This document shows positions 3,346 through 41,623 of a stretch of 64,000 bases of DNA, one piece after another (within the stretch, counting starts at the first letter, position 1; every line of letters starts with the position of its first letter). The notes under the pieces were generated by a model that made no database searches, was not told where the DNA came from, and was given only the letters and a program-made list of their open reading frames with translations. The DNA is from a virus. The DNA lies in the IMG/VR virus record IMGVR_UViG_3300020455_000616. One strand, given 5' to 3'. A program made the translations under genes and the position numbers.

Positions 3346-4005
3346 TTATAGCACGTCCCAAAGCATATTACCAGAAATGGTTACTCTCTCATCATCACAA
3401 TTATAATATGGATATACTTGATGACGTAGTGATGAAGGGAATACAAGCATAGTCCCTTGCATATCCTTATCTAGCCAGATTGGATACTCCCCAACTTCTC
3501 CTAAAATATTACTGTAAGCAAAAACAAAATCAGATGCTGCTGGACCTGCGGAATGGGAACTAAAAGGAAGTGCATGTTGATCTCTCCAATCAGTAGGAAT
3601 CTTCATAAAGATAACAAAAGAAAGTATACCACTATGACGATGACTAGGATTAAACTCAGTTTGATTTTGAAAATTAACCCACCAAGATAAACCGATATCT
3701 ATTAATTTTTCATTCATTAATGGGATTTGCCATCTTTTATCGGTACTCACTGCATTAGAATAAAATTCTTGTGTGAGTGGACCTATAACAGCATTTAAAA
3801 AATAGTTATCTCCCAAAGTTGAAGACTTATCTTCTAACGTTAAACTCTTTGAAATATTACCTGCTAAATGTTTATTACAATTTTGATCATCAATCTTTGC
3901 TTGTTCTATCCTTTCCCAGAGATAGTCCATAACCTCTGGTTTAAGTCTAGTTGAGTAAAGTTGAATATTTGGTAGATCAAACGCATTCCATTCAATACCT
4001 TCCAT
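3346..4005 (-). CDS. putative 2OG-Fe(II) oxygenase (cyanophage type)
   Basis: FNPSHRHSG, GTMLVFPSSLRHQVYP and ERVTISGN motifs. Confidence 0.7.
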   Translation of the reverse strand: MEGIEWNAFDLPNIQLYSTRLKPEVMDYLWERIEQAKIDDQNCNKHLAGNISKSLTLEDKSSTLGDNYFLNAVIGPLTQEFYSNAVSTDKRWQIPLMNEKLIDIGLSWWVNFQNQTEFNPSHRHSGILSFVIFMKIPTDWRDQHALPFSSHSAGPAASDFVFAYSNILGEVGEYPIWLDKDMQGTMLVFPSSLRHQVYPYYNCDDERVTISGNMLWDVL

Positions 4006-7927: not shown

Positions 7928-8479
7928 TTAAACGAATGGTGGACCCCAGACCCAAGTAATTAAAACTTTTCTACTACCTTTTTGTACGGTCTTTACCCTA
8001 TGATAAAGGTACGGTGGGAATATATGAACGAGACCACGTTCTTTAGGAACCTGTACATCTGGGAATAGTTCAAACTCTCCACCTTCATATTCTGAAGGAT
8101 CACTTAGTTGAACTACTACTGTAAATTTTCTAGCAGGGGTAGGGCAGTTAGTATAATCAATATGCCAATTATATTCTGAACCAACATCATAACAAGCATA
8201 CTGAATGATCTCATCAAGTTGATTTATATTAAACCTATAATACTCATTGTTTAATTGGTGAACAACTTTAACTAATTGAGAGAATAACCAATGACTATTA
8301 TCATTATAGTCAATATTAGTTGTCCAAGATTTTTTAACATCATCATTAAATTGTGTACCAGAATTCATATCAACCATATCTTCTATACTATCTAATTGTT
8401 CTTTAGTAAAAACATTAGATGCATAAACAAAGGGACATGTTGCTCCTTTTGGTGGATTTAATGGTGGTATAGGAATCAA
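7928..8479 (-). CDS. 2OG-Fe(II) oxygenase (PKHD/prolyl-hydroxylase-like)
   Basis: YNWHID, QLSDPSEYEGGEF, FPPYLYHRV, RKVLITW. Confidence 0.85.
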   Translation of the reverse strand: MIPIPPLNPPKGATCPFVYASNVFTKEQLDSIEDMVDMNSGTQFNDDVKKSWTTNIDYNDNSHWLFSQLVKVVHQLNNEYYRFNINQLDEIIQYACYDVGSEYNWHIDYTNCPTPARKFTVVVQLSDPSEYEGGEFELFPDVQVPKERGLVHIFPPYLYHRVKTVQKGSRKVLITWVWGPPFV

Positions 8480-9565: not shown

Positions 9566-9713
9566 TAAATGACTCCATTATCGCATTAACACCTACGACT
9601 GTGGCATTTGGATTTCTTGCAAGAGCAACCTTTCTTGCTTCCTGATAATCTCTGGCATATACATCCTCATTAAAGAGTGTGCCAGCAACATACAATTGAA
9701 CTCTACATTTCAT
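9555..9713 (-). CDS. small hypothetical protein, 52 aa (not in ORF track)
   Basis: Manual translation MKCRVQLYVAGTLFNEDVYARDYQEARKVALARNPNATVVGVNAIMESFNED; ATGA overlap with dam stop. Confidence 0.7.
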   Translation of the reverse strand: MKCRVQLYVAGTLFNEDVYARDYQEARKVALARNPNATVVGVNAIMESFNED

Positions 9714-10573
9714 TTAAAGAACTCCATTAAACTACTCCTTTCATAATTTAGTAATAGTAACTCTTTACGAGTACTTTGATCACCCATGTAATCTCCTGTA
9801 GATCTCATGGTATATGTTAGTTCATATTCTGCTGCATCCCAACCAGCAAATCTATCCTTTACTAATTGAGAATTATTATATGATACTAATTGGTGAGACT
9901 CACATGCCTCACAATCTTCTGCAAATTTATCATGGTCGAATGTCTTATGCATTCCACCTTTCTTACCATATAGATTATCCTTAATATCATAAGGAGGATC
10001 TAAGTATATAAAAGAATCCATTCCATCTATCAACACCTCTTCATAAGAATAATTTGTTATAACCCAATTGGATATTAACTCTTGATATTCTGGAAGTTTT
10101 TCAATTCCTCTAACTGTAAAGTTGGAGGTACTTGCCTGAGGTGAGAAGGACGAGGACTCAGTAAGACCACTAAAACTGCACTTATTGATAATATAAAAAT
10201 TGATCGCAGTATCCAAGGCGGTAATTTCTTCTGCACTGATAGTCTCCTTTGCGTTCTTAAAAAGTTCTTTTGCTTTGTCTGGTGTATTGTGTTCCTCTTT
10301 GAGTTCTAACAATCTATCAGACATAACATCTCCAGATTCCTGAAGTTGCTGCCAAAATGTTGCTAATGGTTTGTATAAATCATTTACCCAGATAGGTAAA
10401 TTAGGATACAACTTAGTAACGTGTATAGCAAAAGACCCACCCCCAATAAAGGGTTCTCTATATTGCTCATAGGTTGCCAAGTTAGGTAGGTACTTCTCCA
10501 TCTTTATACAAGCACGAGACTTACCACCAGGATACCTTAGAGGTGTTTTAAGAGACTTCAGGGACTTATTCAT
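9710..10573 (-). CDS. dam: DNA adenine methyltransferase (Dam/D12 class)
   Basis: PLRYPGGKS, YREPFIGGGS (SAM binding), YLDPPY catalytic motif. Confidence 0.9.
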   Translation of the reverse strand: MNKSLKSLKTPLRYPGGKSRACIKMEKYLPNLATYEQYREPFIGGGSFAIHVTKLYPNLPIWVNDLYKPLATFWQQLQESGDVMSDRLLELKEEHNTPDKAKELFKNAKETISAEEITALDTAINFYIINKCSFSGLTESSSFSPQASTSNFTVRGIEKLPEYQELISNWVITNYSYEEVLIDGMDSFIYLDPPYDIKDNLYGKKGGMHKTFDHDKFAEDCEACESHQLVSYNNSQLVKDRFAGWDAAEYELTYTMRSTGDYMGDQSTRKELLLLNYERSSLMEFFK

Positions 10574-12780: not shown

Positions 12781-12896
12781 TTTAGAATTTCCATTATAGC
12801 ATAATAAACGAATACAAGTGATCCAAAACCACCTATACATAAAATCAATCCAAGAAATCCAAAGCAATCCAATTTAAATGGAGCATACTTTTTCAT
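12777..12896 (-). CDS. 39-aa hydrophobic peptide (not in ORF track)
   Basis: MKKYAPFKLDCFGFLGLILCIGGFGSLVFVYYAIMEILK; ATGA overlaps at both ends. Confidence 0.5.
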   Translation of the reverse strand: MKKYAPFKLDCFGFLGLILCIGGFGSLVFVYYAIMEILK

Positions 12897-13822
12897 TTCT
12901 CAATCAATCCATCTAGAGATGGTATCTCTATTAAATCACGATAATCCTCATGTAGTTCACATCCAATGTAATCCCTACTTAATGACCTTGCTACCCTAGC
13001 AGTAGTACCAGATCCCATAAATGGATCTAATATAATATCTCCCTTTTGACTACCTGCCTTTATACATGGTTCAATAAGATCTGGTGGATACACTGCAAAG
13101 TGAGCACCTTTATAAGGTTTATTAGTTACCCTCCAAACAGATCTTTTATTCTTCTTAGCATACGATTTACTTAACCCAGTGTGAGGGGAAAGACCAGTGC
13201 CAGCATTATGATACTTACCTTTAGTACGATCTCTAGTACCCCAATCTTTTGCTGGTTCTTTGATTGCTTCATTGTCATAATAATACCTCTTGTTTTTACT
13301 TAATAGAAACAAATATTCATGGGATTTTGTACATCTATCCTTCACACTTTCTGGCATTGGATTAGGTTTATGCCATATAATATCTTGCCTTAAATACCAT
13401 CCATCTGCTCTTAATGCAAATGCTAACATCCAAGGTATTCCAATTAAATCTTTCTCTTTTAATCCTTCTAATTTATTACCTCTTTTATTGCACTTATCTG
13501 GTAGGTCTTGTTTAGTCTTGCTTACTGATTGTTTAGGATATGCCTGACCTTTACCAGGTCTATAGTTATAATAACTATCACCTATGTTAACCCATAATGT
13601 TCCATCATCTGTTAGGCAATCTCTTACCAATCCAAATACTTCAACTAAATTTTTTATGAAGTCTTCTGGTGACTGTTCCTGACCTATCTGGTTCTCTTCA
13701 CCACCATAGTCCCTAAGACCATAATAAGGCGGTGACGTTACACACATCCTCGCCTTATCTGTATATGAAGCAAACTGTTTTAACGTCTCTCTACAATCAC
13801 CATAGAGGATAGAATTTCTCAT
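12893..13822 (-). CDS. N4-cytosine/N6-adenine DNA methyltransferase (beta class)
   Basis: VTSPPY catalytic motif N-terminal, DPFMGSGTT SAM-binding motif C-terminal. Confidence 0.9.
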   Translation of the reverse strand: MRNSILYGDCRETLKQFASYTDKARMCVTSPPYYGLRDYGGEENQIGQEQSPEDFIKNLVEVFGLVRDCLTDDGTLWVNIGDSYYNYRPGKGQAYPKQSVSKTKQDLPDKCNKRGNKLEGLKEKDLIGIPWMLAFALRADGWYLRQDIIWHKPNPMPESVKDRCTKSHEYLFLLSKNKRYYYDNEAIKEPAKDWGTRDRTKGKYHNAGTGLSPHTGLSKSYAKKNKRSVWRVTNKPYKGAHFAVYPPDLIEPCIKAGSQKGDIILDPFMGSGTTARVARSLSRDYIGCELHEDYRDLIEIPSLDGLIEK

Positions 13823-14487
13823 TAACCAAAAGTTGAATCAGGTTCTAATGCAATAAAGTATGTAAGATCATAATCTTTACATTTAAACCTAGACAATAGT
13901 TTCTGAGATACAACAACCTCATAAGTACCAGGTATAATTTTAATATTTTCTACTTTAAAATTAAAGTTGAATACATCATTTGTCTCACCAACTGTAATAG
14001 CAAAGTCATTAGAAGTATCATTCTTCTTATCTCTAACAACAATCCTTACTACACCATTCTCACCAACGACTGCTAAGTCTGGTAACTGATAAATTGCTGC
14101 TGCCTTAAGCAAACGATCTAACTGTTGTGTATTCAATACAAATGATACATCCTCACTAGGAAGATCTAAATTCTTATCTGGTGGTGTAACTATTACGCTA
14201 GGATCAGCAAAGAAGTATTTGGATCTCATCCTACCTTCTTTAATAACTACATGACCTTCATTGTCAAAATCCAAATCAGGATTCTGATGTAGACCCATAC
14301 CATTAAGGAATTGATTCAAATCATATATTCCAAAATCTTTTGGGAATGATTCATTGACTTCTGCTTCTGCAAGAATATTCTTCATTACAGAGATTGTACG
14401 AAGTTTACTACCCTCTTTAAAAAGAATAGATTGATTGATGTTACTGAAGTTCTTAAGTAGATTAACAGTTTTATCAGAAAGTTTCAT
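13822..14487 (-). CDS. gp45: sliding clamp
   Basis: MKLSDKTVNLLKNFSNINQSILF, FGIYDLNQFL, YFIALE; start placed at MKLS. Confidence 0.94.
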   Translation of the reverse strand: MKLSDKTVNLLKNFSNINQSILFKEGSKLRTISVMKNILAEAEVNESFPKDFGIYDLNQFLNGMGLHQNPDLDFDNEGHVVIKEGRMRSKYFFADPSVIVTPPDKNLDLPSEDVSFVLNTQQLDRLLKAAAIYQLPDLAVVGENGVVRIVVRDKKNDTSNDFAITVGETNDVFNFNFKVENIKIIPGTYEVVVSQKLLSRFKCKDYDLTYFIALEPDSTFG

Positions 14488-15148
14488 AACGAGTGTTAGT
14501 ATAATCAGTTTCTTTAGTGTTGCCACTGAAGTAATAGAGGAGTAAGCAATAATGCATTGCTTTTAGTATATCTTGTTTTGCAGTTCCCTTCTTATCATAG
14601 CGACTCAAATACTTAAGTGCATTAGATCGACAGAATGATTCTGCATCACCTACAGAGTGAATAAGATCAAGAGTTTGAGTATCTGAATTCTTATTAGTGT
14701 AGTGTCCTTGATAGGTAGAAGAGACATAAGTTTTTAAGTCTTCAATACCTTTATCTTCTTGATACTTGTGAGATTTATAGTTTAAATCTGGTTGAGGTTT
14801 TGGATCATGAGCATCAGCAAAAGTTACAGTATCCTCAGTATTAAAGGTTACAGTATCATAACCACTAGTGTCAATGTTGAGAGATTCTGCTGCACCAACC
14901 ATGTTGTCTATTTGAAAATCAAATGCACTAGCATAAGGATTAGTTTCTATGGTTTTTTCAAATGGATTTTCAGTTAATCCATTTCTATCCCAATCATAGT
15001 AATACTGAGAATGCTTTGGTTCAGGATTAATTAGGTCATAGTCCTCACTTTCTAATGAGGTGATCCTATCATCATCTTTTGACTTTGGAGGATCATACTC
15101 ATCAGACTCCTGAGGTGTTACTCTATTCTCGTCACTCATAGTAGACAT
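14474..15148 (-). CDS. DUF3310-like hypothetical protein with acidic N-terminal extension
   Basis: HY ... FCRSNALKYLSRYDKKG ... DILKAMHY motif. Confidence 0.6.
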   Translation of the reverse strand: MSTMSDENRVTPQESDEYDPPKSKDDDRITSLESEDYDLINPEPKHSQYYYDWDRNGLTENPFEKTIETNPYASAFDFQIDNMVGAAESLNIDTSGYDTVTFNTEDTVTFADAHDPKPQPDLNYKSHKYQEDKGIEDLKTYVSSTYQGHYTNKNSDTQTLDLIHSVGDAESFCRSNALKYLSRYDKKGTAKQDILKAMHYCLLLYYFSGNTKETDYTNTRYETF

Positions 15149-15162
15149 TCTTTTCTCCTAAT

Positions 15163-15191
15163 ATTATACCAAGGATTCTTCTTCTTGTCCA
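15163..15191 (-). promoter_or_regulatory. sigma70-type promoter TGGACA-17bp-TATAAT
   Basis: Lies in the last codons of the AAA ATPase gene, followed by an AGGAG SD. Confidence 0.65.
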
Positions 15192-16318
15192 TCTTCTGCT
15201 GGTGCAAAATTAGGATCAACCTTGTCATAGAGTTCTAAGAAGGACTGCTTAGTCTCATCATCAAATCTATTGAGGCACATATTAACTGCCTTCTCCTTGT
15301 TATTGAAGATGCTATATGCACGGATGATGTGTGTCAAACGACGAGTACTAATAACTTCATCAATACCACCATCATAGAATGTCTTACGGATAATGTCTGC
15401 CCAGTCTACAAGACGCTGACAGAAGTCAGAGTGTTGATTAACTTCAGCATCACCATTAGCAAGACCAACTTCTATTGCCTTTGCTACAAGAATCTTAAAT
15501 TCAGTTGTAGGTGAAGGATACTGTTGTTCAAAGGTAACACAGAATCTTTCTAGGAATGCTTCATTAAGAACATTAGTTCCTATAAATCTACCATCATCAG
15601 ATCCCTTACCCTTTGTATTAGCAGTAGCAAGAATGTTGAATCCTTTAGCAGGTTTTACAAACTTACCAATCTTTTTAAGGAATACTCCTTTACCTTCTAA
15701 GATTGACTGGAGGCACAAGATTTTGTTAGAGGCAAGATCAACTTCGTCCAGAAGCAAGATTGCCCCTCTTTGTAATGCTTCGACAACAGGACCGTTGTGC
15801 CAAACAGTGCAACCATCAATAAGACGGAAACCGCCAATGAGATCATCTTCGTCCGTTTCGACTGTGATGTTGACACGAATTAACTCCCTTCCTAATTGAG
15901 CACACGCCTGTTCGACGCTAAATGTTTTACCATTACCAGATAGACCAGTAATAAATGTTGGATAAAACAACTTGGATTGAATAATTTTCTTAACGTCATT
16001 AAAGTTTCCAAACTTAACAAAAGTTGGATCTTTATCTGGGATAAGATTTTGAACTACAGAAGGAATTGCTGATGGAGCAGATGGAGCAGCAGGTGCTTTG
16101 AATGAACGCTCAATCTTCTCAACTGCTTTTGTAGTTACTTCCAAATTCCACTTACCCTTCTCTACTTTATGCTTAAGTAGTTTCTTAGTGACTGTTTGAT
16201 AACCAATATCATTCATGGCACAGAAGGCACGAATATCAGCAGCAGTAAATTGATTGCCGTATGTCTTCTTTAAACCATTTTTGATTTGGTCTTCGGTCAT
16301 TTTAATTTCAAAAGGCAT
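15164..16318 (-). CDS. cobS: MoxR/CobS-like AAA+ ATPase
   Basis: GLSGNGKT, LLLDEVD, ATANTKGKG, NEAFLERF, ISTRRL. Confidence 0.88.
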   Translation of the reverse strand: MPFEIKMTEDQIKNGLKKTYGNQFTAADIRAFCAMNDIGYQTVTKKLLKHKVEKGKWNLEVTTKAVEKIERSFKAPAAPSAPSAIPSVVQNLIPDKDPTFVKFGNFNDVKKIIQSKLFYPTFITGLSGNGKTFSVEQACAQLGRELIRVNITVETDEDDLIGGFRLIDGCTVWHNGPVVEALQRGAILLLDEVDLASNKILCLQSILEGKGVFLKKIGKFVKPAKGFNILATANTKGKGSDDGRFIGTNVLNEAFLERFCVTFEQQYPSPTTEFKILVAKAIEVGLANGDAEVNQHSDFCQRLVDWADIIRKTFYDGGIDEVISTRRLTHIIRAYSIFNNKEKAVNMCLNRFDDETKQSFLELYDKVDPNFAPAEDGQEEESLV

Positions 16319-18782: not shown

Positions 18783-18993
18783 CGAACTTTTTAAGTGAGT
18801 CCTTGAGATTGGATGAACAATCAGGAGGTTCAGGATCTACTATACCATAGATCTTCTTCCATTTGTTGTGCAATGCACCCATCATCCAAGATTGAGCAAG
18901 ACTATGAGGACCATTCTCAAGCAGATCTAACTCATACTTGCTATTGGTGTATGCCTTCATCTCCTCTCGCCAATTGGAATCATCCTTGTCCAC
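18769..18993 (-). CDS. hypothetical protein
   Basis: In-operon ORF overlapping the epimerase end. Confidence 0.6.
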   Translation of the reverse strand: MDKDDSNWREEMKAYTNSKYELDLLENGPHSLAQSWMMGALHNKWKKIYGIVDPEPPDCSSNLKDSLKKFDETT

Positions 18994-19888
18994 TGATCCA
19001 ATCCTCCAGTTCTACAGTTGGTCTCCACCCGAAGATAAGTCTCAGAAGAGTATTCTGTGCAAGAGTCTCTCTTGCTTCACCAGGTCTTTCTGGTATATAT
19101 GATAGTCTACTATCTAGACAAGTAACCATTCTTGCAACTTGATTAACAGAATAATTTTTACCATTACCTACATTGTAAACTTCTCCATAATCCTCATCTT
19201 TAATATCAGTAATCGCAGCAAGATAATTTGCATGGACTACATCAGATACATGTGTAAAGTCTCTACGTTGCTCACCATCACCCACAATAGTTAACTTTTC
19301 ACCTGCTGCTTTTTGACGTAAGAAGATGCCAATAACAGGAGCATACTGTCCTCTTAATGGTTGACGCTCACCATAGACATTAAAGTATCTAAAGATAACT
19401 GTCTTAAGTCCAAATAGTTCTGTATACATCTTACACAATTTCTCACCAGCAACCTTAGAAACTGAATAAGGATTTAAACAATCATCTGGGTCCATCTCAG
19501 CATTTGGTGTCTTACCCATACCATAAGCAGATGATGTAGATGAATACATTACCTTCTGTACACCTGCTTCCCTAGCACACTGTAAGACTGTTGTAGTACC
19601 TACACAGTTTATCTGAACTGCTCTTATAGGATTCTCAATTGCTGGTTGAATTCTTGCTTCTGCTGCAATATGGAATACGTAATCAATACCATCATATAAT
19701 GGTCGTGTATTCTCATAGTCACAGATATCAAACTTATGATTCTCTGCTCTCTCATTCCAGTAGAAATTATCATGAGCATCTGAATACTCATTGTCAATTA
19801 CAACTACCTCATGTCCTTCTGCGAGAAGTTTATCTACGAGGTTCGATCCTATGAATCCTGCACCTCCTGTTACTAATGATCTTGTCAT
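18980..19888 (-). CDS. NAD-dependent NDP-sugar epimerase/dehydratase
   Basis: GGAGFIGS, YSVSK (YxxxK), FRYFNVYG, RDFTHV. Confidence 0.92.
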   Translation of the reverse strand: MTRSLVTGGAGFIGSNLVDKLLAEGHEVVVIDNEYSDAHDNFYWNERAENHKFDICDYENTRPLYDGIDYVFHIAAEARIQPAIENPIRAVQINCVGTTTVLQCAREAGVQKVMYSSTSSAYGMGKTPNAEMDPDDCLNPYSVSKVAGEKLCKMYTELFGLKTVIFRYFNVYGERQPLRGQYAPVIGIFLRQKAAGEKLTIVGDGEQRRDFTHVSDVVHANYLAAITDIKDEDYGEVYNVGNGKNYSVNQVARMVTCLDSRLSYIPERPGEARETLAQNTLLRLIFGWRPTVELEDWISGQG

Positions 19889-34395: not shown

Positions 34396-35046
34396 CTATA
34401 GGGAGTTTAGGAAGTCTTGGAATAAACCAAGTTTTTGTTCTTCTAAATCTCTTGCCCTACTTGCACGTTCTATTTTAATTCGTGTTTGATTAGCGAGTCT
34501 TTCCTTTAGGAGTCCACCATCCCAAACCCACTCTTTTCCTTCCATAATACCTTGAACAAAGGCATCAGGTGCAGATGGATCAGCGACTATATCTGCAGCA
34601 GTAGCTAACATGAAGTCTTCACCGACTTCTTTATAACCCTTGGTATTATCCCTTAAAGAACCGATACCTCTAGAAGATACTCCTAAAGTTACCCCATCCT
34701 TCAATAGTGATTCTGCAATCTTACCCATAGGTGTAGATAAGATCTGAGCTTTACCAACGAAGTTTTTACCTTCTTGCCTAAGATCAGTGATCTTGTGTGA
34801 TACTCTGTCGAGGTTTACGGTAGGTCCATCTGGGTGACCTAATTCACCAAGAGCACGTCCTTTTTGAACGTAGTCCTTGTTATACCTGTTGACTTCCTTT
34901 TCCATTATGTTAAATGGATATAACCGACCATTGCGGTTTACCATTTCACTTTGAAGGAATACACCTTTTATAAAAAGATTCTTCTTACCACCAACCGTTT
35001 CAGTGATAATTTCAACAGATTCAATTTCTTCTCTTATGAGTTTCAT
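34396..35046 (-). CDS. gp21: prohead protease
   Basis: NRNGRLYP, GELGHP, GVSSRG, ADPSAPDA. Confidence 0.96.
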   Translation of the reverse strand: MKLIREEIESVEIITETVGGKKNLFIKGVFLQSEMVNRNGRLYPFNIMEKEVNRYNKDYVQKGRALGELGHPDGPTVNLDRVSHKITDLRQEGKNFVGKAQILSTPMGKIAESLLKDGVTLGVSSRGIGSLRDNTKGYKEVGEDFMLATAADIVADPSAPDAFVQGIMEGKEWVWDGGLLKERLANQTRIKIERASRARDLEEQKLGLFQDFLNSL

Positions 35047-35064
35047 CGGATCAATTAATCGCTT

Positions 35065-35079
35065 TATTTATTATTTATT
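35065..35079 (-). promoter_or_regulatory. tandem late-promoter-like AATAAATA x2
   Basis: Two overlapping copies upstream of gp21. Confidence 0.55.
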
Positions 35080-35082
35080 GAT

Positions 35083-35274
35083 TTACTCTTCGCCAACCAC
35101 ATCAGCGGACTCTGATCCACCACTATTTACGAACGTAGTATTGATATCAGGTCTAAGATTTTCAATCTTTTCTGAAGATTTTGTGTAAAGGATGTCTTTG
35201 ATTTTATCAGTCACTTCTGCTGGTGACGCATCATTTACAACCATATCCAATAGTTCATCCATTGTCTTTAACAT
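35083..35274 (-). CDS. small hypothetical protein of the head module
   Basis: MDELLDMVVNDASPAEVTDKIKDILY...; sits upstream of gp21. Confidence 0.7.
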   Translation of the reverse strand: MLKTMDELLDMVVNDASPAEVTDKIKDILYTKSSEKIENLRPDINTTFVNSGGSESADVVGEE

Positions 35275-35287
35275 TAATTTACCTATC

Positions 35288-35302
35288 TATTTAGTCTAAA
35301 TA
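35288..35302. promoter_or_regulatory. palindromic back-to-back late-promoter-like site TATTTAG-T-CTAAATA
   Basis: Perfect 7-bp inverted repeat giving CTAAATA on both strands at the strand switch; plus-strand TGaTATAAT at 35310-35318. Confidence 0.55.
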
Positions 35303-35316
35303 TATCATGTGATATA

Positions 35317-35472
35317 ATGAATACGAACATGGGAAGCAAGAAACCTGATAAAATGTCTAAAATTGATACAGATTATCCTGGACCGTTTAACACACGTTCA
35401 GACAATGATGATGCAATAGCACATCTTGTCAATGATGGTAGATTCTACATTGAAGAAACAGAAGACGATTAA
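35317..35472 (+). CDS. 51-aa peptide, candidate precursor/partner of the radical SAM enzymes (not in ORF track)
   Basis: MNTNMGSKKPDKMSKIDTDYPGPFNTRSDNDDAIAHLVNDGRFYIEETEDD; stop overlaps next ATG (TAATG); alternative in-frame starts at 35329 and 35353. Confidence 0.6.
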   Translation: MNTNMGSKKPDKMSKIDTDYPGPFNTRSDNDDAIAHLVNDGRFYIEETEDD

Positions 35473-37205
35473 TGTCTAATAAAGTCTACTTATTTCAACC
35501 ACAACATGCAATATTCATTAAAGGTATAGAGAACTATTGGTTACCCTATGCTGCTGGATGTCTGTGGAGTTATGCATCTAAACATACTGAAGGTTTTGAA
35601 TTAGGTGAGATTATATTTAAAAGAGAAGATCCTTTTAAGATTTTAGATAGGATAGATGATCCAGTATTATGTGTATTCAGTACATACATTTGGAATGAGC
35701 AGTATAATTTATATCTTGCCAGACTAATTAAAAATAAATTTCCAGACTGTGTTATTGAATTTGGTGGACCTCAATCAACTAGAGGTTTAATAGAGAATGA
35801 TTTTATTGACTGTGTAATCTTAGGTGAAGGTGAAAAACCTATTGTTGATATTCTCAATAGAATTAAAAATTCATGTCACATAAAAGAGATTTATGAGAGA
35901 GAACAAATAAAGGAAGTTACGTATGAAAGTCCATATACTTCTGGTGTATTAGATAAAATCGTAAAAGATAATCCTAATTATCACTGGGCTACATTAGTAG
36001 AATCTACTAGAGGATGTCCTCATCACTGCACCTTTTGTGACTGGGGTACATGGATGGATAAGATTAAAAAATTTGATCTTACTCAAGTAGAAGCAGATAT
36101 TAACTGGATGTCTACTCATAAAGTAGGATTCCTAATGATGGCAGATGCAAACTTTGGAATATTTAAAGACAGGGATTTACTAATTGCAAGGATGCTTAGA
36201 AAGGCAGCAGACCATCCATTAGCAATTATAGATGATCTTACAGTACAATACACTAAAAATTCTACTGATGTTATCTTTGATATTAGTAAAGCATTAGGTC
36301 CATATGATAGAAGAGGGGTGACTATGAGTGTTCAAAGTATGAACTCACCAACTCTAAAAGCAATTAGAAGACAAAACAATACAATAGAAAAGGCAAAAAA
36401 ATTTGTTAAGAAGGCAAGAGAAAAAGGTGTTAATGTATATACAGAAATGATTCTTGGTCTTCCAGAAGAGACAGTAGAATCATGGAAAACTGGATTATGT
36501 GAGTTACTTGAGGCTGGTCAAGATAGCATTGACATATGGTTCTGTCAGGTATTTGGTAACACAGAATTAAATCTCAATAGAGAGAAGTATGGAATTAAAG
36601 TTGTTAATGCCACAGATTATGTCTCATTCACTAATAAAGAAGACTCTATTAAAGAAATAGTTGAGATTGTAAATCAAACAGATAGTATGACAACTGAGGA
36701 TATGATTGAATCATATCTATATGCTTGGATGGTTATAATGTTCCATATTAATGGATTTACTCATGTCTTATCTGAATACTCGAATTTATCATATAGAGAG
36801 TACTATGATAATATGTTTGAATGTCTAAGGAATGATACTGGTTTATTTGGAAATCATTTTAAGGAAATTAAAAAAAGAGTTACCACTTACCTAACTACGG
36901 GTCAGTTAATATCTGATAAAGATAAAGGTCATCTTTTAGAATTAAGTATGGGAACCGACTTTGATTTATTCTGGAATAATAAGACTGAAGTATTTGATTT
37001 TGTAAAATCTATTTTACCTGTATCTAAATCATTATTTGAACTACAACAAAAAACTGTTTATGATCCAAAAACAGAATATCCATTCACAATTATGCATGAT
37101 AAAGAGTTTTATATTATAGATAATCCTAGGAGTGATGAAGAACGTGATGATATATGGGTTCTTAAAAGAAAGAATCTTTTAAAAAACAAACTAATAAAAC
37201 CATGA
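35472..37205 (+). CDS. cobalamin-binding radical SAM protein 1
   Basis: N-terminal B12-binding-type motifs (STYIWN, FGGPQ, DCVILGEGE) and RGCPHHCTFCDW (CxxxCxxC). Confidence 0.88.
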   Translation: MSNKVYLFQPQHAIFIKGIENYWLPYAAGCLWSYASKHTEGFELGEIIFKREDPFKILDRIDDPVLCVFSTYIWNEQYNLYLARLIKNKFPDCVIEFGGPQSTRGLIENDFIDCVILGEGEKPIVDILNRIKNSCHIKEIYEREQIKEVTYESPYTSGVLDKIVKDNPNYHWATLVESTRGCPHHCTFCDWGTWMDKIKKFDLTQVEADINWMSTHKVGFLMMADANFGIFKDRDLLIARMLRKAADHPLAIIDDLTVQYTKNSTDVIFDISKALGPYDRRGVTMSVQSMNSPTLKAIRRQNNTIEKAKKFVKKAREKGVNVYTEMILGLPEETVESWKTGLCELLEAGQDSIDIWFCQVFGNTELNLNREKYGIKVVNATDYVSFTNKEDSIKEIVEIVNQTDSMTTEDMIESYLYAWMVIMFHINGFTHVLSEYSNLSYREYYDNMFECLRNDTGLFGNHFKEIKKRVTTYLTTGQLISDKDKGHLLELSMGTDFDLFWNNKTEVFDFVKSILPVSKSLFELQQKTVYDPKTEYPFTIMHDKEFYIIDNPRSDEERDDIWVLKRKNLLKNKLIKP

Positions 37206-39043
37206 AGAACGTCTATATGTTCCAACCACAGTATGCTGTGGAAATAAGAAAAGAAGACACCTACTGGTTGCCTTATAGTGTAGGGTGTCTATGGAGTTAT
37301 TGTAGTCAGTTCAAAGATATTACAGATAACTTTGAATTAAAAGAGTTTATATTCAGAAGAGAAGATCCAGCAGATATATTAGATCGTTTAGATAATCCAG
37401 CAATATGTGCGTTTAGTTGTTATATTTGGAATGAACGCTATAATTTACATGTAGCTAAATTAATCAAAGAGAAGTATCCAGATTGTATTATTGAATTTGG
37501 TGGTCCTCAAGGAACAAAACATTTACTTGAGTATGACTTTATAGACACCATTATCATCTCTGAAGGTGAAGAGTCATTCTATGATCTTCTAATAAAAATT
37601 AAAAATAATGAAAGTATTGAACGACTCTATACTAAAGAGCGAATTGAAGTATTGGACTTCCCTAGTCCTTATCAAAGTGGTCTTTTTGATGATATCATTC
37701 AGAATAATCCTGATGTCATGTGGGCTATGACTATGGAAACTAATCGTGGTTGTCCACATATGTGTACGTACTGTGATTGGGGTGGAATGACATATCAGAA
37801 AATTAAAAAGTTTGACCTTGATAGAGTCAAACAGGACATTGAATGGGCAGGTAATCATAATGTTGGATTCATATTTAATGCTGATGCCAACTTTGGTATC
37901 TTTAGAGATAGAGATGTTGAGATTGCAAAGATGTTTAGAGAAGCAGCAGATAAAGGTAATTTAGAAGCAATCAATATACAGTACTCTAAGAACTCAACAG
38001 AAGTTGTTTTTGAGATTGCAAAAATAGTTGGTGACATTAGTAGAGGAGTCACTATAAGTGTTCAAAGTATGAATCAACCTACACTTAAGGCAATTAAAAG
38101 ACAGAATATGAAGGTTAATAAAATATCTGAACAGATAGAAAAAAGTAGAGAATATGGTGTTAAAACATATACTGAATTTATTTTAGGGTTACCTGAAGAG
38201 ACTTTAGATTCTTGGAAGGAAGGGTTCTCAAAGGTTCTTGAATGTGGTCAACATGAATCAATTGATATTTGGTTCTGTCAATTATTTGGTAACACAGAAC
38301 TCAATAGCAAACTATCAAGAGAAATGCATGGAATAAAAACTATCAAGTCAGAAGACTATGTTTCTTTTGGTAATGATAGAGATTATAACGGAGTAGTAGA
38401 GATAATAGAACTCATCTCTGAGACTAATACAATGACCAATGATGAATTGATTGAATCATACATGTATGGTTGGTTAATTGTTCAGTTCCATATTGCTGGT
38501 TATACTCAACTGATAGCAAAATACTTCCATTATAAGTTAGGAATATCTTATAGAAGATTCTATGATGCTTTATTTGATTATGTTAGAAGTAACAAAGGTA
38601 AACTAGGAGATCATTATAGAGAGATCTTTAATTCAGTTAATCATTACATGAAGACTGGAAAAATATTAGATACAGGTAAACATGGTCATACATTACATGC
38701 AGGAAGTTTTGCCTTTATGTTTAATAATAAAGAAGAGATCTTTTCAGAAGTAAAAAATATGATTAGAACATTACAACCAATGATTGAAGAATGGTGTGAT
38801 GTTAAATCTCCAATAGATGATAATATATTAGAAGCACAAAGATGCTTTATCTTTGATGAGAATATGACATACCCTCATACATTTAAATCCAACTATGATT
38901 TAAGTACATGGGAAGAGAAAGATATTGAATATCTTATTGATACTGAATTTAAAAATTTCGACAAAAATAACCCACATGAGGTCTTCATCTTAAGACGCAA
39001 AGGTCTACTTAAGAATCAGATGAAGGAACTATGTAAGGTTTAA
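37202..39043 (+). CDS. cobalamin-binding radical SAM protein 2 (paralogue)
   Basis: SCYIWN, FGGPQ, SEGE, RGCPHMCTYCDW; ATGA overlap with paralogue 1. Confidence 0.88.
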   Translation: MKNVYMFQPQYAVEIRKEDTYWLPYSVGCLWSYCSQFKDITDNFELKEFIFRREDPADILDRLDNPAICAFSCYIWNERYNLHVAKLIKEKYPDCIIEFGGPQGTKHLLEYDFIDTIIISEGEESFYDLLIKIKNNESIERLYTKERIEVLDFPSPYQSGLFDDIIQNNPDVMWAMTMETNRGCPHMCTYCDWGGMTYQKIKKFDLDRVKQDIEWAGNHNVGFIFNADANFGIFRDRDVEIAKMFREAADKGNLEAINIQYSKNSTEVVFEIAKIVGDISRGVTISVQSMNQPTLKAIKRQNMKVNKISEQIEKSREYGVKTYTEFILGLPEETLDSWKEGFSKVLECGQHESIDIWFCQLFGNTELNSKLSREMHGIKTIKSEDYVSFGNDRDYNGVVEIIELISETNTMTNDELIESYMYGWLIVQFHIAGYTQLIAKYFHYKLGISYRRFYDALFDYVRSNKGKLGDHYREIFNSVNHYMKTGKILDTGKHGHTLHAGSFAFMFNNKEEIFSEVKNMIRTLQPMIEEWCDVKSPIDDNILEAQRCFIFDENMTYPHTFKSNYDLSTWEEKDIEYLIDTEFKNFDKNNPHEVFILRRKGLLKNQMKELCKV

Positions 39044-39621
39044 AGGATTCTATTGCCTCATCCCAAAGGATTCTGTGTTCGTAATCTTTATCCTTATCTA
39101 TTAAAGCAATAGTAATAGTAAATCTCTTGTCATCTGTAGGGTTATGAGAACTATGCAGAGGACCAACATTAATAAGACTAGAAGTACCAACATCAACTTC
39201 ATGTTCAAGAGTAGACTCTTCTGGTCTAGCAACTAATACTTTACCGTGATAGTGATCATCTGTTCTATCACCACCTGCTCGTGCATCTGTAGTACTAACT
39301 TCAAATGCTTTATCTGAAGACCACCATCTCATAGTACTTCCTTTAGCACCTATTTGATATATTATTTTTGCCCAAGACCAATCACCAATATTATCAGAAT
39401 GCACAATACCGTCCTCATGTGGAGGAGTATAAAAGAACTCTATCCAATGAGAACTATATCCCATGCTGTTTAACCACGGGAGAATTTTATCATTACCTAG
39501 ATCTTCAAATTGTAGTTGCTTATGGAATTGCAACCACCCCATACCTTTAGTTTTATATTTTGATACGTCTATGTTTGGAAGATAATCTGGTATATTTAAA
39601 AACCTATGAGCATTTTTCATC
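39009..39621 (-). CDS. putative 2OG-Fe(II)/cupin-fold oxygenase
   Basis: IVHSDN (HxD), PLHSSHNP, KRFTITI; start placed at MKNAHRF. Confidence 0.6.
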
Positions 39622-39969
39622 AAAGTCATGAATATTTTCTGAACCACCAACCGCAAATGGATTGTACTTGGAAGTTGCTATCTTGTACAACTTTTCATGA
39701 GTGCTTGGACCTTCATACTCTTGTCCATCTTCTTCATCAATAAACCAGTTTGTTTCTTCTTCTGATTTTGGGTTTTGTTCGATTAACATCATTTCAGTGT
39801 CTAACTCCAATCTACGTTCAGGTGGTGCATACTTATTCTCATTAGTTGCTATAGGCATACTATCATGAGGATGTGCAAGTTCGTTAATTACTCTATTCAT
39901 CCAGTCAGTGCTATCCTCATCTTTTTTTGATTTAAGAGAGAACCATTTTGATGGATTTAATGAGATCAT
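39604..39969 (-). CDS. hypothetical protein
   Basis: Immediately downstream of gp20, acidic. Confidence 0.55.
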   Translation of the reverse strand: MISLNPSKWFSLKSKKDEDSTDWMNRVINELAHPHDSMPIATNENKYAPPERRLELDTEMMLIEQNPKSEEETNWFIDEEDGQEYEGPSTHEKLYKIATSKYNPFAVGGSENIHDFDEKCS

Positions 39970-39970
39970 A

Positions 39971-41623
39971 CTAGGTTAGCGTTGGTGCTTCAGGATCTAA
40001 GGGTGTTTTGCCAGATGCTCCATTAGTGTTATCTGGAGATTGACCTCCCATAGGTTCCATTGGTAATCCTGTCTCAGGATCAATAGGAGCCATTGGATCG
40101 GGTATAACACCCTGCTCAATCTCTTTTGCAATTAGTTTATCTTGCTCAATAATTTCCTCATCTGTTTGACGAAGGAACTTACGACGTACATAGTCCTGTG
40201 AATAATATTTACCAACATAAGGTTCTGCAGTCGCTGCAATATTAAGGCGTTCTGTCATTAACTCTGCTTCCTTCAGTTCGGAGAAGTGATTATCATATAA
40301 GAAGTCATATTGAATATGCTCCTCCATTTTATCCCAATCTTCTGGAGTTACAAGGTTCTTAAGTAAACACTGGGTCTTCAACATATCGTTGAACATCCTT
40401 GAGAATCTCTTACGTAATCTACCTACAAACTTAGTAAACTTAAGTTCATCTCTAAGGATCTCTGAGGATCTTCCTAGGTTAAACCCACCTTCACCACCTT
40501 GTCTTGACTCAGGCACGTTTAGAGATCTATACAACTTAGATTGGAAGTACTTAATATCTGCTAGTTCACCTAAGTTTTGTCCACCTGGTAGTGTAGTAAT
40601 CTCAGTTCCTCTACCTCCTTCTCTACGTGGTAACCAGAAGTCTTCCAACATAGACATAAACTTCTTGTCATCACGAATCTCTCCAGTACTTGCATCATAT
40701 ACCAACTTATTACGATAACGCATCATAACGTCACGTAGGTACTGCTCTGCCTTCATCTTAGGGAGATTACCAACATCAATGTAGAATATTCTTCTTTCAG
40801 GTGCTCTTGATAATCTGTAGATAACAAGAGAGTCCTCAATCATTCTTAATTGGTTGAGTGACTTAATTGCTTTGTGTAGATAGGATAATGTTGTTCCTTT
40901 ATTCCTATCAACCAATCCAGAGGTACAATATGAGATGGAATCTTTTGCAAACTTAACTCCACCACCAGATCCTTTACCTGGTTGTCCACCATAAGGTGCT
41001 ACATTTTGTTTTGGGTTATATACAAAATACTCTTTAATATTTGGGAATGGGGATGACATTGGATTGTCACGTCCATCATTCTGTTGTACACCACCACCTT
41101 TATCCTTCTTAGTTATTGATTCACGTACATAACGCATCTTCAATGCATCAATATACCTTAACTCCTGAATCCCATCATGTGGATTCTTTAAGTCAATTAC
41201 TTTATGGTAATATAATCTTCCATCAACATACCAATTTCTATAAATCTCATGACACTTTTTATCAAAGTCTAGAAGTTCAAGAACAGTTTTAAATTCTTCT
41301 CTTATCTTTTTCTTTAAACTATCTCCAGCATTTAAATTATCTAAATCTATCTGAACAGGACTATCGTTTAAATCACTAACTATTGCTTCATTGACAATAT
41401 CTTCAATCGCACCATCACATTCTGGATGTAATGCCATCTCTCTATATCTCTTGATGAGATCATATTCGGTTTTATAGACTCCTTCTATATCTACATAAGA
41501 ACCAAAAAATCCACTGGTTAAGTAATGATCAACTCCATCCTCATTTGATTGAGGTATGGGTGACACCACGCCAGGGGATTTTTTTTCGTTATCCTCAATA
41601 GAAAAGCCAAATAACTTCGCCAT
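39971..41623 (-). CDS. gp20: portal vertex protein
   Basis: MAKLFGFSI, YRLSRAPERRIFYIDVGNLP, EDFWLPRREGGRGTEI. Confidence 0.98.
   Translation of the reverse strand: MAKLFGFSIEDNEKKSPGVVSPIPQSNEDGVDHYLTSGFFGSYVDIEGVYKTEYDLIKRYREMALHPECDGAIEDIVNEAIVSDLNDSPVQIDLDNLNAGDSLKKKIREEFKTVLELLDFDKKCHEIYRNWYVDGRLYYHKVIDLKNPHDGIQELRYIDALKMRYVRESITKKDKGGGVQQNDGRDNPMSSPFPNIKEYFVYNPKQNVAPYGGQPGKGSGGGVKFAKDSISYCTSGLVDRNKGTTLSYLHKAIKSLNQLRMIEDSLVIYRLSRAPERRIFYIDVGNLPKMKAEQYLRDVMMRYRNKLVYDASTGEIRDDKKFMSMLEDFWLPRREGGRGTEITTLPGGQNLGELADIKYFQSKLYRSLNVPESRQGGEGGFNLGRSSEILRDELKFTKFVGRLRKRFSRMFNDMLKTQCLLKNLVTPEDWDKMEEHIQYDFLYDNHFSELKEAELMTERLNIAATAEPYVGKYYSQDYVRRKFLRQTDEEIIEQDKLIAKEIEQGVIPDPMAPIDPETGLPMEPMGGQSPDNTNGASGKTPLDPEAPTLT

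Follow-up and report, generated by a model that had tools for sequence, protein, structure and literature searches.

A plus-strand cassette of paired cobalamin-type radical SAM genes in the head module of T4-like cyanophages

Gene content and enzyme family of the cassette

We analyzed a gene cassette in IMG/VR virus record IMGVR_UViG_3300020455_000616, a 64,000-nucleotide stretch of DNA that is referred to here as the window. The window is a segment of a T4-like cyanomyovirus in which nearly all long open reading frames (ORFs) are on the minus strand. The cassette consists of three plus-strand ORFs, a small ORF followed by two genes for radical S-adenosylmethionine (SAM) enzymes (rSAM1 and rSAM2), which form one coupled unit bracketed by the genes for the prohead protease gp21 and the portal gp20 (Table 1). 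The original prediction, made from the letters of the window without database searches, had described this unit and its placement in the head module, and both descriptions were confirmed: the small ORF and rSAM1 meet in a TAATG overlap, rSAM1 and rSAM2 meet in an ATGA overlap, and the flanking genes match the Pfam families Portal_T4 and Peptidase_S77. The same prediction had called these the only real plus-strand genes in the window, in agreement with our finding that the other plus-strand ORFs of at least 100 amino acids lie wholly or largely within longer minus-strand ORFs and that the plus-strand ORF at 18813-19142, which partly reaches an intergenic gap, has no Pfam match. The extent that it gave (35288-39043) captured the cassette but omitted a convergent oxygenase-like gene, orf215, which is the usual companion of the cassette.

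Both enzymes matched the Pfam family Radical_SAM (PF04055; 6.8e-17 for rSAM1 and 8e-14 for rSAM2) and carry the CxxxCxxC motif (C182/C186/C189 in rSAM1, at ~36015-36038, and C184/C188/C191 in rSAM2, at ~37751-37774), whose cysteines were invariant in a 12-member alignment of both paralog types. The two proteins are 47% identical and 69% similar over their full length. Their matches to the B12-binding family (PF02310) were below the Pfam threshold (16.1 and 21.5 bits vs. 32.1); many close homologs carry PF02310 as a precomputed Pfam match, and the alignment of rSAM2 with TokK and CysS, which starts at residue 21, spans the N-terminal Rossmann-type cobalamin-binding domain. Radical_SAM, B12-binding, and Radical_SAM_N2 were the only Pfam domains reported for the enzymes. 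Trp76 of TokK and Trp75 of CysS are the lower-axial tryptophans under the cobalt (TokK and CysS preprints), and W76 of rSAM2 aligns with TokK W76 in the HMMER alignment and was invariant across both paralog types in the 12-member alignment. By these features, rSAM1 and rSAM2 are diverged paralogs of cobalamin-type radical SAM enzymes. The earlier proposal of B12-dependent radical SAM paralogs, which had pointed to sequence blocks shared by the two proteins, therefore held, and the shared blocks are visible.

Among solved structures, the best match to rSAM2 was TokK (7kdx; E 5.5e-76, 260 bits, residues 21-464), followed by CysS (9n1b; E 3.6e-43) and then by a match at E 5.9e-08. The best NCBIfam model for both copies was the KedN5 family of methylcobalamin-dependent C-methyltransferases (NF033712), with 143.7 bits for rSAM1 and 179.1 bits for rSAM2; these scores are far under the cut-off of 700, and the phage enzymes are therefore relatives of the KedN5 family and not members of it. 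The family of C-methyltransferases acting on ribosomally synthesized and post-translationally modified peptides (RiPPs), TIGR03975, scored 35.8 and 35.9 bits where the cut-off is 281.85, the ApyD model 34.8 bits against a cut-off of 750, and the methyl-coenzyme M reductase (MCR) glutamine C-methyltransferase family 32-35 bits. NCBIfam matches to HpnJ, BchE, HpnR, and PhpK were weak and far under their cut-offs. The enzymes thus group with iterative small-molecule C-methylases of the TokK, CysS, and KedN5 type, and C-methylation is their predicted activity. No convincing PHROG match was found for either enzyme (one match was weak and likely spurious). The family is large, with at least 1999 matches at E <= 1e-5 in a 90%-identity collection and 1197 clusters at 50% identity with E <= 1e-30, most of them metagenomic. 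No carrier-protein, nonribosomal peptide synthetase (NRPS), or beta-lactam gene was found among the window ORFs examined.

Table 1. Coordinates of the cassette, its companion and flanking genes, and the promoter-like boxes in the window.
Feature	Position	Strand	Description
Small ORF	35317-35472	+	51 aa (47 aa if the start is ATG 35329)
rSAM1	35472-37205	+	577 aa; cobalamin-type radical SAM; upstream paralog of the variable slot, clade A
rSAM2	37202-39043	+	613 aa; cobalamin-type radical SAM; conserved gp20-side paralog
gp21 prohead protease	34396-35046	-	Peptidase_S77 (Pfam)
gp20 portal	39971-41623	-	Pfam Portal_T4, 6e-195
orf63	35083-35274	-	Small acidic protein, phrog_14164
orf215	39012-39629	-	~206 aa from ATG 39629; longest frame from TTG 39656; probable Fe(II)/2-oxoglutarate oxygenase
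orf121	39604-39969	-	Acidic, 121 aa, between orf215 and gp20
Divergent late-promoter-like boxes TATTTAG-T-CTAAATA	35288-35302	.	Minus-strand arm toward orf63/gp21; plus-strand arm toward the cassette

The portal of the window is 72-78% identical to the portals of cultured Synechococcus myoviruses, S-SCSM1, S-SM2, and SynMITS9220M01 among them. Because the interval between gp20 and gp21 in S-SM2 and SynMITS9220M01 holds two small same-strand ORFs only, the cassette is an insertion relative to these cultured relatives. On the gp21 side, orf63 keeps its place beside gp21 across all the loci and the cultured relatives, a position from which it may correspond to gp67 or gp68, the prohead core proteins of T4. 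On the gp20 side, orf121 was restricted to the closest (marine) group of cassette loci and had a single weak PHROG match, to a family of unknown function (phrog_4639).

Distribution, companion genes, and promoter-like motifs

Our scan of IMG/VR identified 37 loci with the cassette, and further loci were found in other assemblies (~40 uncultured cyanophage contigs). Dozens of contigs that carry the gene are 50-260 kb long. Wherever the flanks were visible, the cassette was in the slot between gp21 and gp20 and on the opposite strand. In the cultured phage records that were searched, a megablast search with positions 35000-39300 returned a 47-nt flank match only, and a tblastn search with rSAM2 returned no cyanophage match and one distant gut-phage match. 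A scan of 185,579 GTDB species genomes with two short peptide patterns gave best matches that were 20-31% identical and partial, a result that cannot show cellular relatives to be absent.

The two paralogs had different histories in a maximum likelihood tree of 52 distinct copies (quick search, with support from the Shimodaira-Hasegawa-like approximate likelihood ratio test, SH-aLRT). All 28 gp20-side copies formed one clade (SH-aLRT 100) that tracked the phage backbone, whereas the upstream copies fell into at least two deep clades that did not. For example, locus L002 has a gp20-side copy that is 96% identical to that of the window and an upstream copy from the other clade, and the upstream type of the window was present in several more divergent loci (~70% identity). 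Because the gp20-side copies form a single backbone-following clade and the upstream copies do not, the tree describes a cassette with one fixed predicted methylase (rSAM2) and one exchangeable one (rSAM1). The number of enzyme copies per locus varied from one to three. Two loci, L016 (1851-4215) and L028 (1739-4215), are three-copy cassettes, where a 525-aa truncated radical SAM copy and then a 209-aa remnant resembling glycosyltransferase family 25 (GT25) precede the usual pair; this form looks like a recent insertion or duplication in decay.

The first gene of the cassette varied as well. In 29 loci with a visible flank, the upstream slot held the small ORF in nine, a ~300-aa GT25-like ORF in 14, and nothing in six, and in these six just 40-60 nt lie between orf63 and the first enzyme. 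Homologs of the small ORF (51, 66, and 115 aa in L006, L008, and L010) share its conserved core K-x-D-xx-YPGPF-xx-SDNDD-x-IAH; the small ORF also has an acidic tail. Since M5-G6 is invariant in these homologs, the ATG at 35329 is the most likely start. The pairwise ratio of non-synonymous to synonymous substitution rates was 0.05-0.4, and the window and L002 differ by 11.5 synonymous vs. 3.5 non-synonymous changes. These substitution patterns show purifying selection on the small ORF, which is therefore a genuine gene, albeit an optional one in the cassette. No match to the small ORF was found in Pfam, PHROG, or NCBIfam, its variants and the ~300-aa leading ORF had no Pfam match, and a search of cultured phage records gave one match at E 0.4.

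A profile search located the small ORF motif in ~185-aa proteins, where it occupies a central position ahead of a C-terminal DUF3310 domain. The gene for one of these motif-bearing proteins, P0191, belongs to the replication module of other T4-like cyanophages, where it is flanked by a bilin reductase gene and gp45 and is far from any radical SAM gene. The window encodes a DUF3310 protein of its own (14474-15148, minus strand, 224 aa; between a CobS-like gene and gp45), which lacks the YPGPF..SDNDD.IAH motif and gave no alignment with the small ORF. The presence of the motif in the cassette ORF but not in this protein could be the result of a domain shuffle or split. A role of the small ORF as a head peptide cleaved by gp21 was considered for the invariant I-x-E near its C-terminus and was then dropped. 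The predicted complex of rSAM2 and the small ORF had a score of 0.01, which gave no verdict and was used neither way.

The original prediction had put forward a RiPP-like system, in which the small ORF would be a precursor peptide C-methylated by both radical SAM enzymes, and had suggested checking whether homologous pairs keep an upstream short ORF, whose usual absence would count against this reading. As its alternative it had named modification of virion proteins or nucleotides, which is still viable. The purifying selection on the small ORF, its translational coupling to rSAM1, and its layout, in which a conserved N-terminal and central part precedes a variable acidic tail in superficial likeness to a leader and core, are what a RiPP-like system might look like, but 20 of the 29 cassettes lack the small ORF, and one of these (L009) has an rSAM1 that is 93% identical to that of the window. 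In L002, a small ORF 94% identical to that of the window adjoins an enzyme of a different clade. The RiPP reading thus fails on comparative evidence because the small ORF is optional, is uncoupled from enzyme type, and shares its motif with DUF3310 proteins whose genes have no radical SAM gene near. The profile and structure searches suggested for the enzymes likewise upheld their B12 radical SAM class and placed them with TokK and CysS, outside the RiPP methylase families (36 vs. 282 bits). No SPASM or RRE domain was reported in the Pfam and NCBIfam scans, and the cassette has neither a protease nor an exporter. We consider a precursor role very improbable and regard the product of the 51-aa ORF as a different sort of small protein, real but dispensable, and not as a cassette-encoded peptide substrate.

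At the other end of the cassette, orf215 converges on rSAM2, shares ~32-35 nt with its 3' end, and accompanies 29 of the 34 cassette loci with a visible gp20 flank. Among 11 homologs, H77-x-D79, H159, and R169-x-T171 were invariant or nearly so, which corresponds to the iron triad and the 2-oxoglutarate-binding pattern of Fe(II)/2-oxoglutarate (2OG) oxygenases. Foldseek matched the AlphaFold2 (AF2) model of orf215 (predicted local distance difference test score, pLDDT, 64.5; predicted TM score, pTM, 0.62) to cupin and JmjC/2OG oxygenases with E ~1e-4 and TM 0.3-0.4, and nearly all of the top 50 matches from VIA-align were 2OG oxygenases with Z 6.7-8.3, values that are borderline by the note of the tool. 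An Atlas feature search gave Asp_Arg_Hydrox and 2OG-FeII_Oxy_3 clusters at 0.89, as leads only. No Pfam family matched at E <= 0.01, and tblastn found no match in 50,697 phage records, so orf215 is absent from the cultured phages there. Together, the motif and the fold model indicate that orf215 is a probable Fe(II)/2OG oxygenase. Two other genes in the window encode 2OG-Fe(II) oxygenases (3346-4005, minus strand, PF13759, and 7928-8479, minus strand, PF13640), and orf215 would bring the number of such enzymes in the 64 kb to three, as the most divergent of them. A 218-aa gene that follows a distant homolog of the cassette enzymes in L134 was compared with orf215 and is unrelated (hhalign probability 1.9%).

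Between orf63 and the small ORF lie 42 nt that contain the sequence TATTTAG-T-CTAAATA, with the plus-strand box CTAAATA at 35296-35302. A late-type promoter had been named in the original prediction; this late-type box is real and is conserved in relatives, with TATTTA(G/T)-N1-2-(C/A)TAAATA present in all 18 of the cassette loci examined, whichever gene comes first, in spacers that have otherwise diverged. The minus strand of the window has 17 copies of ATAAATA and the plus strand none, and the motif is found 25-48 nt upstream of gp22, gp21, gp20, gp18 (sheath), and other late genes. The late promoter element of T4 is TATAAATA, and the ATAAATA pattern fits a T4-type late promoter element. The cassette is probably expressed late, from one arm of a divergent (C/A)TAAATA pair that would act as the promoter. 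A scan of 34900-39800 for sigma-70 promoters and terminators gave no more matches than shuffled sequence did. Four short contigs from one marine metatranscriptome were identical to parts of rSAM1, rSAM2, and orf215 and mark presence in an RNA library only.

Candidate substrates of the cassette enzymes

Our leads to a substrate come from sister cassettes and from distant homologs. The ~300-aa first gene of 14 of the 29 sister cassettes encodes an invariant MEDDYD motif, and its N-terminal half was modeled as a GT-A fold (pLDDT 58) that is nearest to GT25-type enzymes, with COLGALT1, mimivirus R655, and LgtB-like galactosyltransferases as the best fold matches. Distant homologs of the cassette enzymes (34-39% identity) sit with genes for family 2 glycosyltransferases (GT2), DegT-type aminotransferases, and nucleoside diphosphate (NDP)-sugar epimerases/dehydratases. 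A fused double homolog, P0216 (1283 aa), is clustered with two GT2 genes, one DegT-type gene, and four more B12 radical SAM genes. GenK, GenD1, and similar enzymes are cobalamin radical SAM methylases that tailor sugars.

One metagenomic contig (L132, 1-13501) has six B12 radical SAM genes, of which one is a 1283-aa fusion of two units, among two GT2 glycosyltransferases and a DegT-type aminotransferase and appears to be a glycan cluster unusually rich in radical methylases. Homologs of ~39-44% identity in L134 (1-17899) and L129 are directly preceded by a HIT-family gene. Those in L134 are found among genes for GTP cyclohydrolase I, 6-pyruvoyltetrahydropterin synthase (PTPS)/QueD-like, MazG-like, AMP-binding, and NDP-sugar epimerase proteins, a mixture of nucleotide and sugar chemistry. 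The window itself encodes an NAD-dependent NDP-sugar epimerase/dehydratase (18980-19888, minus strand; Pfam Epimerase 6.6e-61, GDP_Man_Dehyd 2.1e-53), which adjoins a gp46-like gene and could supply a modified sugar to the cassette enzymes.

From the observed anatomy, homology, distribution, paralog swapping, and motif conservation, we infer a chemistry, a timing, and a target for the cassette. The explanation that we favor, with a probability of roughly 0.45, is sugar or glycoconjugate tailoring by a late-expressed accessory island, glycans on the virion included. The tailoring island would have been inserted on the opposite strand between gp20 and orf63-gp21 of a T4-like cyanomyovirus, and its core would be a pair of cobalamin-dependent radical SAM C-methyltransferases whose chemistry we draw by analogy to TokK and CysS. 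In such a scheme, SAM would methylate cob(I)alamin, and a second SAM, split at the [4Fe-4S] cluster, would yield a 5'-deoxyadenosyl radical. This radical would abstract a hydrogen from an unactivated sp3 carbon, and the resulting substrate radical would accept the methyl group from methylcobalamin, possibly in several rounds in succession. The fixed enzyme would be rSAM2, the exchangeable rSAM1 would add or alter a second methylation, and orf215, as the convergent and usual companion, would hydroxylate the same substrate. The substrate would be a sugar or glycoconjugate made late, either a nucleotide sugar that the phage makes or modifies or a glycan of the virion or cell envelope, and the cofactor would be host cobalamin or pseudocobalamin.

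Several points weigh against this explanation. A sugar is proposed as the substrate from gene context, and TokK and CysS themselves act on pantetheinylated small molecules, not sugars. The substrate-anchoring Arg280 of TokK aligns with N258 of rSAM2, a variable, non-Arg position, which suggests a substrate different from that of TokK. The cassette of the window has no glycosyltransferase of its own, and the HIT, GTP cyclohydrolase I, PTPS, and MazG-like genes that adjoin some distant homologs point toward nucleotide chemistry. The nearest structural neighbors of orf215 include protein hydroxylases. The models of orf215 and the GT25-like protein are modest (pLDDT 64.5 and 58), and their fold matches are middling (TM 0.3-0.4; Z ~8). 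Late timing is read from the motif alone, and the contigs in the RNA library could be contaminating DNA.

Direct modification of virion proteins during prohead assembly, in which the oxygenase would hydroxylate and the radical SAM enzymes would C-methylate side chains of head, portal, or core proteins, comes next in our ranking and is unlikely. In sister phages, the GT25-like enzyme would then glycosylate the hydroxylated residue, following the logic of collagen hydroxylysine. In favor of this reading, the cassette is placed inside the head-assembly region, back to back with orf63-gp21 across the shared divergent late-promoter-like boxes. Genome position shows no target, however, and among the data examined no candidate target protein co-varied with the cassette. 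Protein C-methylation by cobalamin radical SAM enzymes has precedents in Mmp10 and QCMT, yet the phage enzymes are far nearer to TokK and CysS than to the protein and peptide methylases (32-35 and 36 bits). Fold neighbors of the accessory enzymes also speak for protein targets: among the best for orf215 are ribosomal protein oxygenases (NO66 and YcfD) as well as prolyl hydroxylases, and among those for the GT25-like protein are collagen hydroxylysine galactosyltransferase and a PBCV-1 capsid glycosyltransferase. However, paralog swapping together with an optional oxygenase and glycosyltransferase fits variable decoration better than an essential assembly step.

Tailoring of a nucleotide precursor or of a hypermodified genome base, as an anti-restriction measure, is improbable. 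It would explain why homologs of 36-44% identity adjoin a HIT-family gene (L129 and L134) and lie near GTP cyclohydrolase I, PTPS/QueD-like, and MazG-like genes, and it has a precedent in OxsB, a cobalamin radical SAM enzyme that is able to act on nucleosides; AlkB-type 2OG oxygenases were also among the fold matches of orf215. These contexts, however, belong to distant homologs in other kinds of contigs, which hold sugar genes too, and no nucleotide-metabolism gene is linked to the cyanophage cassettes themselves. T4-like phages run their DNA precursor chemistry early or in mid-infection, and a late promoter beside head genes would be an odd place for it. We hold it to be similarly improbable that the cassette reprograms host metabolism as a set of auxiliary metabolic genes, methylating a host lipid, pigment, or cofactor from a location in the head module that is incidental. 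Cobalamin radical SAM methylases do act on hopanoids, bacteriochlorophylls, and phosphinates, and weak HpnJ, BchE, HpnR, and PhpK matches were seen, but all of these family scores are far under their cut-offs. Cyanophages are rich in metabolic genes, and examples in the window are those for a bilin reductase, a peptide deformylase, a CobS-like protein, and the two further 2OG oxygenases; no close cellular homolog of the cassette enzymes was seen in the two-pattern GTDB scan (best 20-31%, partial), and the recurrent glycosyltransferase link in sister cassettes would be left unexplained. Sugar or glycoconjugate tailoring therefore heads our ranking, ahead of direct virion-protein modification, then of nucleotide and host-metabolite targets at similar low odds, and last of the RiPP-like system.

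Significance and comparison with known systems

Some of the most difficult C-C bond formations in biology are catalyzed by cobalamin radical SAM methylases, which are so far known from antibiotic, lipid, pigment, and methanogen pathways. Here, a known enzyme class, the class B radical SAM C-methylases, occurs in an undescribed phage context, as a large phage-specific clade in a fixed head-module slot of widespread marine and lake cyanophages. The swapping of paralogs and first genes between near-identical backbones is a signature of diversifying pressure, as might arise from surface decoration or counter-defense, and the enzymes are candidates for new iterative C-methylation chemistry. A more specific version, in which a C-methyl group (possibly ethyl or isopropyl) and a hydroxyl would be added late to a head or portal protein or an attached glycan by way of host pseudocobalamin, seems to us doubtful. 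If it is true, the exchangeable paralog and optional glycosyltransferase would generate surface diversity among near-identical phages, and the cassette would be the first case of B12-dependent radical chemistry in virion maturation.

That version would also put a phage-encoded B12 consumer beside the long-puzzling cyanophage cobS gene. A CobS-like AAA_5/CbbQ_C ATPase is encoded in the window at 15164-16318 (minus strand), and a link between this gene and the B12-dependent enzyme pair in one genome is possible. We know of no settled role for cyanophage cobS. If the cassette enzymes are active, infected picocyanobacteria would run phage-encoded B12-dependent chemistry, which bears on the marine economics of B12 and pseudo-B12 and on cobS. 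The replication module of the window also has two DNA methyltransferase genes (9710-10573 and 12893-13822, both minus strand), one of the D12-class N6-adenine type and one N6_N4_Mtase.

Full-text literature searches that combined cyanophages with radical SAM and cobalamin turned up no account of the cassette. The S-SCSM2R paper, the one cyanophage paper among them to discuss a radical SAM gene, reports a different, non-B12 radical SAM gene beside sugar and aminotransferase genes, which we rejected as a counterpart of the cassette for this reason. What the present analysis adds is a comparative test of the small ORF, the connection of this ORF to DUF3310 proteins, the tree of fixed and swapped paralogs, and the locus counts.

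The cassette resembles several known systems in part. The orf215 model resembles, at borderline scores, the double-stranded beta-helix of Fe(II)/2OG oxygenases such as prolyl hydroxylases, JmjC ribosomal oxygenases, and EvdO/EvdMO, and its R-x-T is ten residues past the distal histidine, as in those enzymes. Unlike them, orf215 falls outside the Pfam families and reaches a Z of at most 8.3, and the fold does not give a substrate class. The likeness to GenK- and GenD1-type methylases and to phage virion glycosylation cassettes is one of context, through the GT25-like, GT2, DegT, and epimerase neighbors of sister cassettes or distant homologs; unlike virion glycosylation cassettes, the cassette of the window has no glycosyltransferase. 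The class B radical SAM architecture, in broad terms, is common to the phage enzymes and the RiPP methylases of the PoyB/PoyC type, and the window has a small ORF immediately ahead of its enzyme pair, but unlike RiPP methylase systems the cassette has no leader-recognition, protease, or export gene.

The closest parallels are with the small-molecule methylases. CysS, the iterative methylase of the cystobactamid alkoxy group, has the same three-domain plan as the phage enzymes and the lower-axial Trp75; unlike the CysS and KedN5 systems, the phage cassette has no NRPS or enediyne context. The TokK/ThnK methylases of the carbapenem C6 side chain (7kdx, 7kdy) include TokK, the best solved relative of rSAM2, and TokK and rSAM2 have in common the N-terminal Rossmann cobalamin domain, the radical SAM core, and part of a family-specific C-terminal domain. 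Unlike TokK, the phage enzymes have no carbapenem- or pantetheine-related neighbors, occur as a pair of paralogs in a phage head module, and form a very large, mostly metagenomic clade of their own.

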